DNA from: Picochlorum sp. SENEW3
Lineage: Eukaryota
Direction: 5' to 3'
Assembly (NCBI GenBank): GCA_034226945.1
Contig: CP120460.1
Span: forward strand, 744,001 to 808,000
DNA length: 64,000 bases
Under the pieces are notes generated by a model. That model was not told the DNA's origin. It saw nothing but the letters and a program-made list of their open reading frames with translations, and made no database searches. The translations under genes were made by a program, and so were the position numbers. Shown here piece after piece: positions 20,982 to 30,256 of this stretch (the first letter of the stretch is position 1; every line of letters starts with the position of its first letter).

Positions 20982-21186
20982 GACAAGACCCAACCATGCT
21001 AGCATGCTGACTGCCGACAGCACACACACACAAGAATCCTTGCAATAGGAATAAAATGAGGTGCGCTCACTCAGCATCAGAATCTTGCATTTCATCAAAT
21101 CTATACTCCTCTACCATATTGTTCGCATCCGCAACCTTATGCCACGCTTTGCAATGCTCACATTGAACAATCACCATGCCTTTTTC
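20982..21186 (-). repeat. ~200-bp direct-repeat copy of 25546-25742 (3' end and 3' UTR of the DNL zinc-finger gene); gene fragment
   Basis: Near-identical sequence GACAAGACCCAACC...CATGCCTTTTTC at both sites, with only a few substitutions and small indels. Confidence 0.95.
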
Positions 21187-21883
21187 GCACGCAATTTGAG
21201 CAGGAGGGGATAGATTGGTGCCTGTATCTGCCTGTGGCTGAGGCTAGAGGGTCCAATACTCGCCTTGGTAGAGAGGTGTAGCGGTTGTAGTGATCACGAA
21301 AATGAAATACCTCCGCTTCATCGATGCCATGCGAATTTGGGTCGACGTTTTTCTGAGCATTGTAGCTCATCACGAATCAATACTGATATCGGCAACCGAT
21401 GCGGACCACGCTCACAATGCTCTGTCTCGTGTACGTATATGTATACAAGTAAAATTTAAATCGAAGGCAAATCAGTGAACGTATATGAATATATATATGA
21501 CAGAGGATGGATGAGGTCCGACTGGGAATGAGAGTAATTCCTGATTAGAATAGTATCATACAACATGCCGTGTCATCCAGCAAAGAAGAAGATTCTTTCG
21601 CTCGGATACCAACAGATATATCTGATCTCTCATAGATCTCCCATAGATCTCGAGACGAACCGATTCGTACGCGTACGCGTACGCGTACCAGTACGTGCCT
21701 ATTTAGGGCGGCCGCGTCCGCGTCCGCGTGCAACCTAGTAGTACTGCGCCAACCTTGCAATTGCAAGCATGCTTCATTCTTGCAACAAGCCTGACGCTGG
21801 TTGCAACAACAATATGGGAAATTCTTTTTAAATTCCACGATATTATTATTTCTTTCTATTATTCTTTTAATTGATGAAGAACG

Positions 21884-24579
21884 ATGAAAGCCAAATGTGT
21901 GATAACCCCTTCTTTATGGGCTAAAGCGCTGGTGATGCTGGTGATCACTTGTGGGCCGCGTTTTGCCTGGGCCTTCTTTACTGTCGACTGTGGCATTGTC
22001 ACGATTGAACGCTCCGATCCCCTTGTGTCTCCTGGAGCTGTTTCAGCGCATACTCATGTTGTTGCTGGATCAGATACTTTTGGTCCATCTGCGACGAATG
22101 CTATTCTGCGACAAGGTGCGATTTCTGTACGCGGCCCGCGGACACGCTCGGCCTGCAGGCAGTCAGACTCCAGTCTGACCGGTCAGTCTGGCTGGCGAAG
22201 AGTCACTCCAATGCATCCCTGACAGAAACCTTCCTGGCAGGAATGACAGACATTTATGTCGGGAGGTCAAATTATTAGCGTCGAACTTTTTCTGTGATGC
22301 GTGTTGTAAGTAACTTACTTCTTGTGTACACCTATTGCAGGGTCGTGTACCTCGTGCGACGTGAAGGAAGACAAGTCGGCGTATTGGACCCCACAGCTCT
22401 ATGTTGCTCCATCGGGAGCAAAGGGTCAGCTCCAGGAAGATATTGAGGCCCAAGGTGGTGTGCCTGTGCCCTTGGTGAACGGCAATGCTTTCATCATCTA
22501 CTATAAACTTATAACAGACAAGGGTGAAAGACAGGACAACGACGACGAAAAATGGGGAGAAATCGTCCCATTTCCAAAGGATTTCAGGGTGCTTGTGTCT
22601 GAAAGTATGATCAAAGAGAAGACGAAATCAGCTGGTACTCTCTTCAACCATCCTGTGACATACAAATGTCTTGGGTTTGGTGATCAAAGAGACACAGAAG
22701 ACTTCCCAAGCAACCCAGAGTTATGCACGGGCGGGCTGAGGACACAACTCACCTTCCCATCTTGCTGGGATGGTCAAAACTCAGACTCTGCGGACCATGG
22801 TTCTCATGTTTCATATCCAACTGGAAGCTGGGCTGGATCGCCATGCCCCGCATCTCACCCCATCAGATTACCAACTCTGTTCATTGAAGTCATCTACAAG
22901 ACAACGGACATCAAAGAGGAGTTTGCAAAGGGATGGAAGCTGATGTTCCCAGGAATGCCAAACCAGTTCCTTGACAGTGGTGGCCCTCTCTTTCATGCTG
23001 ACTTCATGAACGGCTGGCAGCAAGACTTTTTGATAAAGGCTGTGAATGAGTGTGGCATCACACCGTGCCCATTGATTCAGAAAAGATCGTCCTCTTGCAA
23101 GAAGTTGGATCAGAGCCCAAGCCCACCTGCAACCAGTCCTCCTCCTCCTCCTCCTCCTGCAACCAGTCCTCCTCCTCCTCCTGCAACCAGTCCTCCTCCT
23201 CCTCCTGCAACCAGTCCTCCTCCTCCTCCAACACCGTCTCCATCACCATCTCCATCACCCGAGCCCATACCACCCGAACCACCAAGTGGAGATGATGGAT
23301 TTACACTTCTATGGGCTGATGAATTTGATTCAAATAGCCTGGATAAGAGTAAGTGGACGCCAATGGAAGGAGATGGCTGCGAATATGGTATCTGTGGTTG
23401 GGGTAATGGAGAGTTTCAGTACTACACAAACATGGAAAGGAACGCCTTTGTCTCCGATGGCAGGCTTGTAATTCGTTCTATAAACGAGGCACAAGACCCA
23501 AAAGCACTCGAATCCTTCAGATCATACTGCAAGGGCAGGTGCGTTTTTCTCATCTTATATTTTGAATGCAGCAACCGATTCATTGATCCACTGGTTGACA
23601 TTTCTAACGGCCATGCAGGTGCCAGGTGACTGACCAAGCTTGCACATCTCGCTGTGACTCGATCAAAATCTCTTCTGCAAGATTGCGTACCAAGGGCAAA
23701 TTCGAAGTCAGTCCAAAGAATGCCCCATACCAGGATATGGACATCATCAAGATACAGACCCGATTCAGAGTGACCCCTGGTGCTGGACAATGGCCTGCTA
23801 TATGGATGCTCCCTTCCGCCAATGAGTATGGGGGATGGGCCGCGAGCGGAGAAATCGACATCATGGAGGCGGCGAATTCCATGGATTCAAGTACCAGCGC
23901 CATTCATTACGGAGGGCCCTGGCCGCAGAATGTCTTTTACAGCAAGAGAGCCTCTGCTGATGTCAGCCAGTGGACAACCATCACCTACTATTGGGAGGAG
24001 GACTTTATGCGTTGGGAAGTAAATGGAAATGAGTACATGACTGCCCAAAGTGGTCAAGGAAGAACAAGAGAAGGATGGTACACGACTGCGGCGAATGCAC
24101 CACCCAATGCTCCTTTCGACGAAAACTTTCATCTGTTGGTGAACCTGGCTGTTGGAGGAGGTTATACTGGAAATGTTGCCCTGGATACTGCGCTGCAAGC
24201 CTTGAATGAAGGATCCAAGCAGCTCGAAGTGGACTATATACGTGTGTCTGGAAAAACTGCCGTCCCATCACCATCGCCATCGCCATCGCCATCACCATCG
24301 CCATCGCCATCGCCATCACCATCACCATCGCCATCGCCATCGCCAAACCCATCGCCAAACCCATCGCCAAACCCAATTGATCCCCTGGACTCTTGTTCTT
24401 TCTGCTCAAACATCAGGCAGCAGGGCAAGCCTTATGGGTACTATGGAGATCCCTCCACTGGTTGCAGAGGATACTATACTTGCAAACAACGTGGGGCATG
24501 GTACAACGAATGTCCTCCTGATTTGCTCTTCAATGAGGCTTCAGCAGTTTGCGACCAGCCTGAAAATGTAGACTGCTAG
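21884..24579 (+). CDS. Secreted multidomain protein: DUF1996 - Pro-rich linker - GH16 beta-1,3-glucanase - (SP)n linker - CBM14-like chitin-binding domain; 3 exons
   Basis: Exons 21884-22115, 22341-23538 and 23619-24579, with phase-compatible GT-AG introns. DUF1996 motifs RSDPLVSPG..HTH, CTSC..EDKSAYW, FPSCWDG, HADFMNGW. GH16 motifs WADEF, WGNGE.QYY, WPAIWML, GEIDIME, F.LL.NLAVGG, VDYIRV. C-terminus has C..YYTC..CP..L.FN....CD....C. Confidence 0.88.
23124..23230 (+). repeat. Coding tandem repeat (PATSPPPP) x4
   Basis: CCTGCAACCAGTCCTCCTCCT... units seen directly. Confidence 0.9.
24265..24375 (+). repeat. Coding (Pro-Ser)n/(Pro-Asn) hexanucleotide repeat
   Basis: CCATCG/CCATCA/CCAAAC units, resembling a hydroxyproline-rich glycoprotein linker. 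Confidence 0.9.
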
Positions 24580-24632
24580 TCTATGCCAGTCTATGCCAGT
24601 CTATGCCAGTCTATGCCAGTCTATGTCAGTCT
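24578..24632. repeat. 10-bp tandem repeat AGTCTATGCC x~5.5
   Basis: Seen directly. It begins within the TAG stop of the upstream gene. Confidence 0.92.
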
Positions 24633-24931
24633 GTGTAAATGGAGATGACACTTTTCTCTCTGCTTCAAGTTGTATACTTTCAATTCTCCCATTACCCTGC
24701 CACACAGTTCTCTCCGAAATAAAAGCGATTGCTTTCATGCCTTAACAGAGGCTTGCATCACAATTGCAATGGACTTGTAACTTGCGTTTCCTTTCTTGGG
24801 ACATTTATTGAGGCACAGTGGAGATGCCCCCAGCGTCCTTGTGAACCCGACTCAATGCCGCCCTCCTCCATCACCCAACAATAATAATTGAAATATATTC
24901 CTCACACATCAATCACCCAATTCTAGGGAAT

Positions 24932-25443
24932 GCACCCATCTGACAGAGATTCCATGCCAGAGAGTTTCAGGCACCCAAAGAGAATCAAAACAGGATCAAA
25001 AGTTCAGCATGTTTCAGGACAAAAGCTAGACATTGACTCGCCTGTTGATGAGAACGAGGAGCCCGTGATCTTGATTAATCCAATCGACCATATTTTTCAG
25101 TTTCACAAGGCACTGAAGCAGGAACTCAAAGATCTGGAAAAGGCAGCCCTGCATCTCCAGCGAGAGGCCAGCGCAGCCGAGTCGTGGACCTCGGGTTCTG
25201 TCCTCTGTAGCATGATTCCTGACTTGCAAACGAGATTTGAGTTTCTCAGAGGTATCTACAGAGCACACTCGAGAGCTGAAGATGAAATTGTCTTCCCAGC
25301 ACTTGAATCAAAGGAAACTTTGTGAAACGTGAGCCATGCGTACTCCCTCGACCACAAACAGGAGGAACATCTGTTCCAGCGGGTCTCATCTGACGTGGCA
25401 GAGGTAGGTGCATGCATGGAGACGTTCAACTTGGAGATTTTGC
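24932..25443 (+). pseudogene. 512-bp duplicated internal fragment of the BRUTUS-like gene (copy of 28189-28700) with premature TGA
   Basis: Ungapped alignment at offset 3257 with 13 substitutions, including TCA>TGA at 25323-25325. Confidence 0.95.
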
Positions 25444-25622
25444 TGAACTAGCCAAATATACAACTACCACTACCAATGGGGAGTCCCCTTCACTATATGT
25501 ATGTCACCTGTGTTTTGCATCCAGTAAACGCATGAATGTGTCGAAGACAAGACCCAACCCATGCTGACTGCCGACAGCACACACACAAGAATCCTTGCAA
25601 ATAGGAATAAAATGAGGTGCGC

Positions 25623-26277
25623 TCACTCAGCATCAGAATCTTGCATTTCATCAAATCTATACTCCTCTACCATATTGTTCGCATCCGCAACTTTATGCCA
25701 CGCTTTGCAATGCTCACATTGAACAATCACCATGCCTTTTTCCCATGCCAGTGGATTCACCAACCGCTCTGACCTACCTCCTGCAAAGAGATGCTTGCAC
25801 AAAACATCATGACCGGACAAAATCACCGAGGGTACGGCATTGAAATTAAATCACGTACCACATGCGTTGCACGTAAAACTGACAAGCATGGACCTTCGTG
25901 GTAAATTCAAATCGATGGATGCACTGTTCCCCTGAACGGTTGCATCATCATCGTCCCCTGTATACAACACTCTCTGGGAATAAGATGACAGTCGTCGAAT
26001 GGAATCGCATGTACGAATTTGATCGAATTTGAACAAACATGAACGTACCATTGGCACGCACGATACAAAGCAAACGACGCCGGAGGAGAGAAGAGCCACA
26101 AAAGTACTGTGAGCATGGAGAGGAATGACCACCTTGCTGGTTCTTTCTTGGCGGCACCCTCCTGAGCGCCGTCACGGCCAACCTGCACGTACTGTCCCTC
26201 AAATAGCAAGCAGCAGGCTTTCCAGCCTCGCTCCTACGAGACTCGAGTGGAAGAGTAGAGATACTGAGCGCATGCAT
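25623..26277 (-). CDS. DNL-type zinc finger protein (Zim17/Tim15/HEP-like Hsp70 escort), organelle-targeted, 3 exons
   Basis: PRRSMLVSFTCNACG | GRSERLVNPLAWEKGMVIVQCEHCKAWHKVAD. GTACGT donors near 26047 and 25858. N-terminus resembles a transit peptide. Confidence 0.82.
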
Positions 26278-26599
26278 GATCTACCGAATGAAATAAGATT
26301 TCTGGGAAGAAAGAAGATACGATGAATTCAATCTGGGATCGACGCCGTAACCAGGACATGATTGAGAACATGAAGTTTGGCCCAGTTCATGAACTTTTTT
26401 TGTATTCCTAATGTAGGAAGGATCGGAGATTTTTCATGCAAGTCAATAGCACCCAGCATATACCATACCAATCATAGATTAAATAAATCCGTAAGAATGC
26501 ATTGCCCTGATGTGGGAAATACAAACAGACGTAGGATTCTAAGTTCTCGATTGGATTGAAGCATTTGTCCAAGGATCGCAGCCCTGACGACAAAATACG

Positions 26600-29500
26600 A
26601 TGAATGAGGACGTTTTATCGTCACCTTTATTAGTTTTTTATTCACAATTACATGATGCCATTCGACGGGAGCTTTCAGGCTTGTTCAAGACAGCGTTGTC
26701 CTTGGAAAAGGAGAGTATGCGCCAGGACAGGCGTGTTTCGGCGGTTGACAGCGGGTTAAAGGCATTGAAGGAGCGTTATAAATTCTTGGAAGAGTTGTAC
26801 AAGTATCACAGTAGTATTGAGGATGAAGTGCTGTACCCAGCGTTGGATGACAAGGTTCGAAATGTGACCCTTGCCTACTCTGTGGAGCATGAGGATGAGG
26901 AGCATTTGCTGGAGGAGCTATCGTCAATATTGACATCTGAGAATGCGCTGAAAGGTTTTCGCGAAAATGGTGGTGTTGATGGGCATAGTGATGGAAGCGT
27001 GCATACATCTGAAGGGCTGCATAAGCTTGCACGAAAGGTGGAGGAGGTCCATACCACGCTTACCAAGCATTTGGAAAAGGAGGGGGAGCAGATTTTACCG
27101 TTACTTCAGAATAACTTTAGCATCAATGAGCAGGCAGGGTTGGCGGTTCAATTTTTGTGTTGCATACCATATTCTGCAGTCAAGCCAATGCTTCAGTGGT
27201 TGCTTGGATCATTGTCCAAGGAGGACATGAGAAAGTTGAGCAATCAGATGGCCGAAGCCATCAGTGATCCTTGGCTGAAAAAAGTGATTCATAATTGTTT
27301 GGAACCTCAAGAGGTTGCTGGAGAGTTGAAGGAAGAACATGCTGGCGAGGAGTCGCCGCAAAGGGTTGTTGGAGAACCAAATGAGTTTGTGTGTTGTGGG
27401 TGCAGTCCTTGCACCACTGTAGTTGAGGGGGATATTGAGAATGGTGCACATCATCCTTTGAAAGAAGTGGTGTATTTTCATGAGGCTATTCGGTCAGCTA
27501 TCAGGTCTTTTGCCAAGGAGGCAGCATTGTTGAACAATAATCCTGCAGCGGCAGGAGTCTCATTGGAGCAATTGCAGGGTCTGGCAGAGAGGCATAGATT
27601 CATTAGAGCAGTTTGTCATTTCCATTCAACGTCAGAAGATGAAATATTATTTCCTGCTTTGAACAGGAGTGCTTCCCCTGGGGTTGAGATCAGTCATCAG
27701 TGTGAGGAGGATCATTCCTTGGAGACTGCCAGATTTGAAGCTCTGGGCCGGTTGCTGGGGGATGCCAGGGCTTGTGCGAGGCGTGGAGCGAAAGAGGTAT
27801 CTGAACTTATAGGAGAATTGGCCGAGGTTGCTCAGAAGTTGTCAAAGAGCATGCATGTGCATATGGCAAGGGAAGAGAGTGATATTTTCCCTGCGCTGAT
27901 GGAGAGACTGTGCCCTGCAGAACAAAGATATATTGTTTGGAGGCTTGTGCAGGCGATGCCTTTGCGCTTACTTGAGCGATTTATGCCCTGGATCGCATCA
28001 CAAATTTCCAAAACTGATTTAGATATGTGGCTTTCTGATATGAGGAAAGCCTCTCAGACTGAGCAGAAGCCTCTGGTCGAACTCCTTCGCCAGTGGGCTT
28101 TAAGAAGTATCACTGGCCAAGAATTGGCAAATGAAATGACAGAAAATCCTGCGGCGTATCCTATCAAGACGTGCGGTCCTTCTGAAAGGCACCCATCTGA
28201 CAGAGATTCCATGCCAGAGAGTTTCAGGCACCCAAAGAGAATCAAAACAGGATCAAAAGTTCAGCATGTTTCAGGACAAAAGCTAGACATTGACTCGCCT
28301 GTTGATGAGAACGAGGAGCCCGTGATCTTGATTAATCCAATCGACCATATTTTTCAGTTTCACAAGGCACTGAAGCAGGAACTCAAAGATCTGGAAAAGG
28401 CAGCCCTGCATCTCCAGCGAGAGGCCAGCGCAGCCGAGTCGTGGACCTCGGGTTCTGTCCTCTGTAGCATGATTCCTGACTTGCAAACGAGATTTGAGTT
28501 TCTCAGAGGTATCTACAGGGCTCACTCGAGAGCTGAGGATGAAATTGTCTTCCCAGCACTAGAATCAAAGGAAACTTTGTCAAACGTGAGCCATGCATAC
28601 TCTCTCGACCACAAGCAGGAGGAGCATCTGTTCCAGCAAGTCTCATCTGACGTAGCAGCGGTAGGTGCATGCATGGAGACGTTCAACTTGGAGATTTTGC
28701 GGTCTGCGGCATCAAAGTTATCTAGAATGTGTGCTGCTATCCGCGCTTCGCTCGAAACTCATATTAGGGCGGAAGAGAAAGAATTGTGGCCCTTGTTTAC
28801 GGAGCACTTTACTGTGCAAGAGCAGGAGGAGCTTGTGGGCATCATCATTGGCCAGACAGGAGCAGAGGTTTTGCAGGTGATGCTTTCCTGGGTGACCAAG
28901 TCAATGACTGAGGAGGAAGCAAATGCCATGATGTTCTCATTAAAATCCGCATCAAAATCCACTGCATTTGCAAATTGGTTGGGTGCAGCTCAAGCAAATG
29001 CGTCAAATGGATTAACCAGCAATTCGAATGGAAATGATGTGGGGCACAGCAGCTCTCCTGTGATTGCCATGCAGGAACAAAAGGCAGTTCTGGAAGAAGT
29101 GGCAGCATATCTGGCGAAAAATAATATCTCAGGGCCCAACGCTGCTCCATTGCATCAAAACATTCTCGTTGAACCAACGAGTTTGGATGCAACCCCTTTC
29201 AAACCAGGATGGGAGGATATATTCCGGATGAATCAAAAGCAGCTTGAGAGTGCAGTCAGGCGAGTGTCCGCTGACGATTCTCTTGAACCACAAAGAAAAG
29301 CATATCTGATTCAGCATCTCATGGCCAGTCGCTATATCGTGGCACAGCAAAAGCGAAATCCCGTCTTGTTGAAAGCAAAAGAGCATGGAATGCCTTCAGT
29401 ATCCACACTACGACCAAATAACACTCGTCATGGAAGTCAACAAGCAACAACGTCCCCTCTTGCAAATAGTTCAACTCCATCAGAGTGTACCAAAATGTAT

Positions 29501-30256
29501 CACGACAAGGAGAAGGGCATCCTAGGATGCAAGCATTATGCCAGAAATGCAATGCTTATTGCCCCATGCTGTGACAAAGAATTCACGTGTAGATTATGCC
29601 ATGATGAAAAAGTACTCGATCATAAACTGGATCGGTATCAAGTCAAGGAGATGAGATGCATGTTATGTGGGCTGAGGCAAAACATTAGCAATACGTGCTC
29701 TGGCTGTGGCAGCACCATGGCAGCATACTACTGCAACATATGCCATTTATTCGACAACGATGGCACCAAGGACATTTATCATTGCCCATTCTGCAATTTC
29801 TGCAGACGTGGCAAGGGGCTTGGAATAGACTCTTTTCATTGCATGTCCTGCAATGCATGCATGTCTCTGGAGCTCTTCAATAAGCACAAATGCACCGAAG
29901 CTGCCCTCTCAGGGACATGCCCCGTGTGTTCTGATCCTCTTTTTGAATCAAATACCCCAATCAAAGAACTCCCATGTGGGCATTTCATGCATTCATTGTG
30001 CTTTGGAGCATATGTCAGGTATTCATACACGTGTCCAATCTGTTCAAAATCTCTCGGAGACATGGAAGTGTACTGGAAAATGATTGACGCCATGCTCGCA
30101 TCAGAAAAGCTTCCATATGAATACGCCAAGAGAAAGCAAACCGTGAGGTGCAATGATTGCGGGGCAACATCACAGGCTCCATTCCACTTTGTCTATCACA
30201 AGTGCTCAAGCTGCCATGGGTACAACACAAGAGTATGCCATTCAGAGCATGAATAA
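26600..30256 (+). CDS. BTS: BRUTUS/HRZ-like iron-sensing E3 ligase (3 hemerythrin domains + CHY/CTCHY Zn finger + RING + Zn ribbon)
   Basis: Three H..IR/H...ED..L.PAL/EH/H...E repeats, FKPGWEDIFRMNQ, GCKHYARN..CC..CRLCHD, CPVC..CGHFMH..C..CPIC, CNDC..FHFVYHKC..C..YNT. Confidence 0.93.
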   Translation: MNEDVLSSPLLVFYSQLHDAIRRELSGLFKTALSLEKESMRQDRRVSAVDSGLKALKERYKFLEELYKYHSSIEDEVLYPALDDKVRNVTLAYSVEHEDEEHLLEELSSILTSENALKGFRENGGVDGHSDGSVHTSEGLHKLARKVEEVHTTLTKHLEKEGEQILPLLQNNFSINEQAGLAVQFLCCIPYSAVKPMLQWLLGSLSKEDMRKLSNQMAEAISDPWLKKVIHNCLEPQEVAGELKEEHAGEESPQRVVGEPNEFVCCGCSPCTTVVEGDIENGAHHPLKEVVYFHEAIRSAIRSFAKEAALLNNNPAAAGVSLEQLQGLAERHRFIRAVCHFHSTSEDEILFPALNRSASPGVEISHQCEEDHSLETARFEALGRLLGDARACARRGAKEVSELIGELAEVAQKLSKSMHVHMAREESDIFPALMERLCPAEQRYIVWRLVQAMPLRLLERFMPWIASQISKTDLDMWLSDMRKASQTEQKPLVELLRQWALRSITGQELANEMTENPAAYPIKTCGPSERHPSDRDSMPESFRHPKRIKTGSKVQHVSGQKLDIDSPVDENEEPVILINPIDHIFQFHKALKQELKDLEKAALHLQREASAAESWTSGSVLCSMIPDLQTRFEFLRGIYRAHSRAEDEIVFPALESKETLSNVSHAYSLDHKQEEHLFQQVSSDVAAVGACMETFNLEILRSAASKLSRMCAAIRASLETHIRAEEKELWPLFTEHFTVQEQEELVGIIIGQTGAEVLQVMLSWVTKSMTEEEANAMMFSLKSASKSTAFANWLGAAQANASNGLTSNSNGNDVGHSSSPVIAMQEQKAVLEEVAAYLAKNNISGPNAAPLHQNILVEPTSLDATPFKPGWEDIFRMNQKQLESAVRRVSADDSLEPQRKAYLIQHLMASRYIVAQQKRNPVLLKAKEHGMPSVSTLRPNNTRHGSQQATTSPLANSSTPSECTKMYHDKEKGILGCKHYARNAMLIAPCCDKEFTCRLCHDEKVLDHKLDRYQVKEMRCMLCGLRQNISNTCSGCGSTMAAYYCNICHLFDNDGTKDIYHCPFCNFCRRGKGLGIDSFHCMSCNACMSLELFNKHKCTEAALSGTCPVCSDPLFESNTPIKELPCGHFMHSLCFGAYVRYSYTCPICSKSLGDMEVYWKMIDAMLASEKLPYEYAKRKQTVRCNDCGATSQAPFHFVYHKCSSCHGYNTRVCHSEHE

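Follow-up and report, generated by a model that had tools for sequence, protein, structure and literature searches.

The window analysed here is a stretch of 64,000 nucleotides from Picochlorum sp. SENEW3 (contig CP120460.1, positions 744,001 to 808,000 of the forward strand). At 21884-24579 it carries a gene whose predicted product joins a DUF1996 domain, a laminarinase-type GH16 domain and a CBM14-fold module through proline-rich linkers, behind a signal peptide. The reading that we favour, and to which we give somewhat more than an even chance, is that this protein is a secreted endo-beta-1,3-glucanase remodelling the alga's own wall. It would act by loosening the mother wall, or a callose-like layer between daughter cells, at autospore release. 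We suppose that the CBM14-fold module anchors the protein to wall material, though probably not through canonical stacking on chitin, and that DUF1996 adds a further module, held by disulfide bonds, in which the Asp/His set makes up a catalytic or metal site directed at the same wall. For DUF1996 in this protein, the chances that it is catalytic and that it otherwise serves in binding appear about evenly balanced.

Indeed, the same genome (G000, 13.85 Mb in 14 contigs) encodes a chitin synthase (L029:586-3591, on C6) that matches Chitin_synth_1N, Chitin_synth_1 (145 bits) and Chitin_synth_2 and has intact EDR and QRRRW motifs, as well as a beta-1,3-glucan synthase of 1959 amino acids. It also holds two CE4 deacetylase matches, five lytic polysaccharide monooxygenase (LPMO) matches and two CBM14-GH18 genes, whose GH18 domains carry DxxDxDxE. 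On this gene content, the alga probably makes both chitin and beta-1,3-glucan itself. Any alga that makes both polymers has to open them whenever it divides, and the simplest role for such an enzyme is therefore to remodel the alga's own wall. The original prediction had argued from the pairing of chitin with beta-1,3-glucan to a fungal target, and this argument is weakened by the presence of synthases for both polymers. Picochlorum is reported to divide by autosporulation (PMC6811619, PMC12458973), its wall is described as trilaminar (PMC6141220), and a Picochlorum chitin synthase is already in print (PMC5122149). In Chlorella, chitin-like polymers are reported from the walls (PMC8759652, PMC12142970) and a callose wall between daughter cells has been proposed (PMC4928020). 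Fungal strains deleted for DUF1996 genes are described as sensitive to wall-perturbing dyes, with unaltered virulence (PMC4738358).

The reading frame runs on the + strand from an ATG at 21884 to a TAG at 24579 and, once two introns are removed, comprises three exons and 796 codons; in the unspliced DNA the region consists of three separate open pieces of the + strand. Exon 1 (21884-22115) encodes the signal peptide and the DUF1996 N-terminus with its DPxxxP and HxH, exon 2 (22341-23538) the remainder of DUF1996 (to about 23113), the first linker and the N-terminal part of GH16, and exon 3 (23619-24579) the C-terminal part of GH16, an (SP)n linker, the CBM14 module and the stop. Both introns are GT..AG: intron 1 (22116-22340, 225 nt) is in phase 1, and intron 2 (23539-23618, 80 nt), with a CTAAC at 23604, is in phase 2. 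The resulting protein reads leader (residues 1-30), DUF1996 (31-335), Pro linker, GH16 (398-687), (SP)n linker and CBM14 fold (736-796). Junction 1 restores the published DUF1996 spacing G-X25-26-D (25 residues here), the paralogs on C2 and C12 have an intron at the same place and in the same phase, and P0290, a transcript-derived protein of the C12 type, is spliced there. The C12 paralog has no intron at the site of junction 2: DUF1996 and GH16 lie there in one continuous open reading frame of 602 residues. Furthermore, the public gene models of P0012 (from P. renovo) and P0265 (from Picochlorum sp. BPE23), both close orthologs, use exactly these two junctions, and the P. renovo annotation is reported to have drawn on RNA-seq (PMC6811619). 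The P0265 model skips the second linker and reads the CBM14 DNA out of frame. Other frame-preserving GT-AG pairs exist, 27 for intron 1 and six for intron 2, and were dropped because only the chosen junctions agree with the homologs. Four of the 22 read sets on record (X1, X3, X5, X7) gave no joint at either intron; the X1 and X3 contigs run through both, so that the four sets behave as DNA and speak neither for nor against splicing. Homology and the two public models confirm a single three-exon gene at the level of sequence comparison. The junctions originally proposed (22115/22341 and 23538/23619) are exactly those recovered here, and the proposed order of signal peptide, DUF1996, linker, GH16, linker and CBM14 stands, with no sign of separate genes.

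We infer a signal peptide (residues 1-30, 21884-21973, leaving Phe31 as the mature N-terminus) from its hydrophobic core, with an 11-residue Kyte-Doolittle maximum of 2.27, and from the homologous N-termini, whose consensus starts A-F-W. Linker 1 (23114-23296), rich in Pro, Ser and Thr, consists of PATSPPPP repeats followed by SP repeats, and its length varies between orthologs; linker 2 (24265-24378) is of the (SP)n/(NPSP) kind. Such (SP)n and SPn repeats are those of algal linkers of the hydroxyproline-rich glycoprotein (HRGP) type, and both linkers are presumably glycosylated spacers. The GH16 catalytic domain (23300-24249), split by intron 2, carries W535PAIW at 23791-23805 and an intact EIDIME at 23851-23868 (E555, D557, E560). 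The Pfam match to PF00722, made on exon 3 alone, is marginal (22.2 bits against a cut-off of 22), and a sequence search of the PDB gives beta-1,3(4)-glucanases and laminarinases as the best solved relatives (top E 1.6e-15). ExDxxE is intact in all 14 DUF1996-GH16 homologs whose sequence reaches the motif. GH16 enzymes with this motif cleave beta-1,3-glucan by a retaining, two-glutamate mechanism. The earlier assignment to laminarinase-type GH16 with a complete catalytic motif thus holds, and the domain is a predicted beta-1,3-glucanase.

DUF1996 (PF09362) is split over exons 1 and 2, which cover profile positions 1-30 and 34-237 (164 bits for exon 2, cut-off 27); the ortholog P0265 covers 1-237. 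The family formula D-X4-P..H-X-H-X3-G-X25-26-D-X-S-X-YW..H-X-D-X3-GW, as given in PMC4738358, is fully present, with D45 at 22016, H56-x-H58 at 22049-22057 and the HADFMNGW motif (H296, D298, W303) at 22994-23017. We aligned 190 distinct DUF1996 domains of 200-420 residues: 21 algal-type, 118 other eukaryote-type, 25 from bacterial genomes and 26 viral, the bacterial and viral loci having been chosen on a PxCWxG motif, independently of the Asp/His set. Counting only rows with a residue at the column, and in that order of groups, D45 is kept in 14/14, 94/97, 20/23 and 25/25, H56 in 14/14, 94/95, 23/24 and 25/25, and H58 in 13/14, 94/95, 23/24 and 25/25. For H233 the figures are 21/21, 118/118, 25/25 and 24/25, for H296 20/20, 114/115, 25/25 and 23/23, and for D298 18/20, 115/115, 24/25 and 23/23. 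No glutamate is conserved across all four groups of this alignment, E260 being confined to eukaryotes. This near-invariance suggests that D45, H56, H58, H233, H296 and D298 form an unrecognised catalytic or metal site, and the pattern fits such a site better than it would a classical glycoside hydrolase. Covariation (190 sequences, effective 160) yields plausible strand and disulfide pairs and is too weak to show clustering of the His and Asp residues. An LPMO-like copper enzyme was rejected, as the mature N-terminus would be Phe31, in line with the F-W of the family consensus, where a histidine brace has His1.

Two fold models, made from homologs and not from the window's own sequence, are confident and mostly beta: that of P0022, an algal-type standalone homolog, has a predicted local distance difference test score (pLDDT) of 90.9, and that of a minimal bacterial copy one of 89.3. 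Against 48,161 PDB chains their best Z scores are 2.7 (root-mean-square deviation 4.2, 108 residues aligned) and 3.5 (4.5, 118 aligned), below the usual background of 7-8. Foldseek returned no match at E<=0.001, the viral model set no fold match, the ESM Atlas no match outside the family, and a PDB sequence search no relative (best E 0.33). This absence does not by itself make the modelled fold a new one. The family is large (3,212 clusters at 50% identity). Among 144 further homologs of non-Picochlorum type, the partner is WSC in 54, with DUF1996 ahead of it, where catalytic domains sit; malectin, ricin and PAN are single cases, and neither GH16 nor CBM14 occurs in any of the 144. A link of DUF1996 to carbohydrates, which had been drawn from the present fusion, is supported, but it has already been proposed from CBM1, CBM6 and WSC partners (PMC7679414). 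In the sections of the family literature consulted no biochemical activity is given for DUF1996, and of the 22 papers listed by a full-text search for the domain none is algal by title or abstract start. No consistent sugar-use gene cluster surrounds the 20 bacterial loci inspected. Two bacterial copies are fused to a cupredoxin-like copper-binding domain (L080:5896-7053) and to an apiosidase-like hydrolase domain (L100:5311-7590). DUF1996 with a leader peptide and an intact His/Asp set also occurs on 29 viral contigs (L047-L075), often next to portal, head, tail or endolysin genes; a scan of seven of the viral DUF1996 proteins gave no PHROG match and found LysM in one.

From these features a bolder proposal can be made, which we advance tentatively and consider possible but on balance improbable: DUF1996 would be an unrecognised, metal-dependent family of secreted carbohydrate-active enzymes with a fold absent from the PDB, acting through the six residues on beta-1,3-glucan or on the points where it joins chitin. 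If so, two enzymes would be coupled naturally in the algal protein, and their pairing would name the DUF1996 substrate; its CBM14 would have shifted away from chitin, and fungi, actinobacteria and phages would rely on this chemistry too.

The CBM14-fold module (24394-24576) is well recognised by Pfam (43.6 bits, cut-off 22.1) and aligns to the solved chitinase modules 6g9c and 5wus. The six-Cys CBM14-like domain of the original prediction is therefore borne out by the profile and by the six canonical cysteines, but the module has a seventh cysteine and lacks the chitin-stacking aromatic. Gln790 (24556-24558) occupies the position of the aromatic in the C-D-Trp or C-D-Tyr of solved CBM14s, and Val787 stands at that of Avr4 Trp100, so that neither the CHIT1 Trp465/Avr4 Tyr103 aromatic nor that of Avr4 Trp100 is present. 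At the Gln790 position Trp or Tyr is kept in none of four orthologous modules, against eight of ten paralogous ones. Substitution of CHIT1 Trp465 is reported to have the strongest effect on binding (PMC5459812), while Avr4 is described as depending on Trp100 instead, Tyr103 being its residue at the CHIT1 Trp465 position (PMC6128652). As the two solved cases bind differently, chitin binding by this module is still conceivable. We nevertheless regard it as doubtful, so that the earlier description of the module as chitin-targeting is not established; its specificity may have been lost or changed. The genome has 11 CBM14 matches on six genes, namely the window gene, three LPMOs and two GH18s, and the closest paralogous module is that of the C11 LPMO (32 of 58 residues identical). 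We also observed a secreted chitin-active gene family built with the same linkers (L023, L024, L025, L027 and L028, on C11, C7 and C2), which comprises LPMO-CBM14 proteins with one to four repeats, a CBM14x2-GH18 arrangement and a tandem LPMO pair on C2.

Three DUF1996 genes are present in the genome: the window gene, the DUF1996-GH16 gene on C12, which has no linker or CBM14, and the DUF1996-linker-YbaB-like gene on C2. Over the aligned domains, named Picochlorum proteins match the window protein at 94-99% identity. Among the 120 clusters listed for the C12 protein, 11 combine DUF1996 with GH16; the one that is named is Picochlorum, and none of the 11 has CBM14. When the DUF1996 exon was the query, 59 of 480 candidates passed, in two sets separated by a gap: 16 at 261-592 bits (three named, all Picochlorum) and 43 at <=125 bits (31 named, all fungi). 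The GH16-linker-CBM14 exon is found in three of 120 clusters among the matches listed, at 85, 81 and 55% identity. In one relative the exon-2 product P0271 and the exon-3 product P0453 are recorded with the same length of longest contig (195,548), which suggests that they are linked there too. The one close locus from a metagenome scan, L032, shares synteny with the C12 paralog and breaks off ahead of its GH16. These searches were word-limited and do not prove absence; within them, no named chlorophyte outside Picochlorum showed the fusion, so that the wide occurrence in chlorophytes which would have told against the original prediction did not appear. The architecture appears to be new, assembled from known parts, restricted to Picochlorum-type algae, and it probably serves their own wall.

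In a quick GH16 tree (50 domains, P0115 dropped) the nine DUF1996-fused rows form one group (Shimodaira-Hasegawa-like approximate likelihood-ratio test 96), nested inside standalone algal GH16s (98) and apart from 29 ungrouped rows, bacterial where named; the fusion would therefore have arisen a single time, from a GH16 gene that the alga already possessed. P0017 and P0018, which lack intron 1, instead join DUF1996, a linker, a segment of about 100 residues of no recognised kind, a further linker and the start of a GH16 of another subgroup; judged on 43 residues only, they may represent a second, independent fusion. In a quick DUF1996 tree without bacterial rows (78 domains, P0011 dropped, 55 non-algal domains used), the algal rows form a long-branched group (99) that adjoins two unnamed sequences and lies outside the fungal-type rows, a position that does not show direct transfer from fungi. 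A chlorovirus-like source was dropped, because phage-type modules surround the viral matches examined and identity is 22-33% for all 29. The claim that domains of different origin had been joined therefore survives in part: only DUF1996 looks foreign, while GH16 and CBM14 come from the alga's own families. We propose a single DUF1996-GH16 fusion in the Picochlorum ancestor followed by duplication, after which the window copy would have gained its linkers and CBM14 from the alga's chitin-LPMO/chitinase family. The C2 paralog (L021:4776-6257) joins DUF1996, behind a signal peptide, via a Pro linker to a YbaB/EbfC-like DNA-binding domain, and this fusion is kept in several Picochlorum records.

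Several observations weigh against the protein acting on the alga's own wall. Our literature searches turned up no report in which chitin or beta-1,3-glucan had been measured directly in the walls of Picochlorum, the set of GH16, GH18, LPMO and CBM14 would equally suit defence or feeding, and fungal DUF1996 proteins are reported in vacuoles, not in walls (PMC4738358). Moreover, the gene is, by sequence comparison, part of a rearranged duplication, and no form with a CBM14 appeared in the P. soloecismus cluster. In P. renovo a frameshift precedes the catalytic motif in the P0012 model, and a further copy next to it is fragmented (P0267-P0269), which may reflect assembly error or dispensability. 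Defence would make of the protein an anti-fungal or anti-parasite enzyme, with chytrids, aphelids or other fungi and their chitin-glucan walls as targets; it would resemble a plant PR-2 glucanase to which a module directed at the wall had been added. A secreted GH16 with CBM14, and chitinases and LPMOs in the same genome, would fit this role, as would the duplication and domain shuffling at the locus, which are typical of conflict genes. The 27 DUF1996 genes of Podospora are also reported to be enriched among genes induced in fungal non-self reactions, with 12 of them in that set (PMC3689799). We still consider this role unlikely, given that the alga encodes synthases for both polymers, that the stacking aromatic is missing from the orthologous modules and mostly kept in the paralogous ones, and that DUF1996-GH16 is conserved genus-wide with no CBM14 in the fused clusters listed.

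Picochlorum is mixotrophic, and the closest solved relatives of the GH16 are bacterial laminarinases; the enzyme might thus scavenge glucose from external laminarin, chrysolaminarin, or fungal and diatom debris. A DUF1996 protein is indeed reported in a fungal biomass-degrading secretome (PMC7679414). This nutritional role appears very unlikely to us, as the long HRGP-like linkers and the CBM14 would suit an insoluble wall better than soluble laminarin, and the GH16 comes from an old algal family, not from a recent bacterial transfer. The protein could also be a wall-resident glucanase or transglycosylase whose DUF1996 and CBM14 are non-catalytic, as scaffold, stress sensor or metal buffer, in which case the fusion would be silent on DUF1996 chemistry. 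The Asp/His set is degraded in P0005 and P0280 (D298 to Gly, with the GH16 motif intact) and in P0018 (H58 and D298 both changed), which argues against a required catalytic role; the YbaB-like fusion on C2 indicates that fusions here can be opportunistic, and fungal members are described as stress sensors or vacuolar homeostasis proteins (PMC4738358). However, all six residues are intact in the window protein and nearly invariant over four groups of organisms, and DUF1996 takes the place of a catalytic domain ahead of WSC, so that we hold this alternative to be quite unlikely.

New here are the two confident DUF1996 models with no match to a solved fold and the extension of the Asp/His set across algae, fungi, bacteria and phages. 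Fungal secretomes are rich in DUF1996, which is also found in bacteria and phages. Its conserved fusion to an intact predicted beta-1,3-glucanase narrows its substrate class and indicates which residues to mutate, and genetic tools exist for the genus. The remodelling of the alga's own wall, if correct, points to a system for turning over wall chitin and beta-1,3-glucan in an alga of industrial use, where the wall is an obstacle to extraction and transformation. Should DUF1996 be non-catalytic, the fusion would be ordinary lineage-specific domain shuffling.

Degenerate copies of the two genes next downstream border the gene on either side, and at the left border lies the end of a DDE transposon. 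On the left, 20982-21192 (+) is a 94% copy of the 3' end of the neighbouring zf-DNL gene (25546-25748), followed at 21208-21365 by the terminal remnant of a dispersed DDE_1-type DNA transposon, which matches seven other places in the genome; two copies are inverted on C5. On the right, 24929-25443 (+) is a 97% copy, with a stop codon, of part (28186-28700) of an intronless gene at 26588-30256, whose hemerythrin/CHY/RING product of 1222 residues is presumably a BRUTUS-like iron sensor. A 10-bp unit repeated about six times starts at the stop codon of the window gene (24574-24633). Other repeat-like open reading frames adjoin copies of the DDE element (L113:599-1174 and L111:308-937), and one such frame also resembles an open reading frame beside the C7 GH18 gene (L024).

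Compared with known systems, the window GH16 shares WPAIW, ExDxxE, secretion and modularity with the laminarinase-type endo-beta-1,3-glucanases 7wwc, 6jh5, 4crq, 2vy0 and 3iln, which we take to belong to subfamily GH16_3. It differs from them by an algal Cys-rich insertion around intron 2 and by its DUF1996 and CBM14 partners, bacterial relatives carrying other modules. Within the genus, the C12-type proteins (P0290; P0005, annotated as a glucan endo-beta-glucosidase) have the same fusion and the same intron 1, P0290 being 63% identical to the window protein in DUF1996 and 49% in GH16, but they are devoid of Pro linkers, intron 2 and CBM14. With the CBM14/peritrophin-A modules of human CHIT1, Avr4, and insect and nematode chitinases, the window module has its Cys spacing in common; it departs from CHIT1 and Avr4 at Gln790 and Val787, and it is attached to a predicted glucanase, not to a chitinase or an LPMO. 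The fungal DUF1996(-WSC) proteins, such as Beauveria Vlp1-3 and Wsc1I, are described with the same full formula and with DUF1996 directly after the leader (PMC4738358, PMC9148135). The algal copies are only about 31-37% identical to them and form a separate long branch, and where WSC is the partner in 54 of the 144 homologs of non-Picochlorum type, the algal partner is a predicted catalytic GH16.

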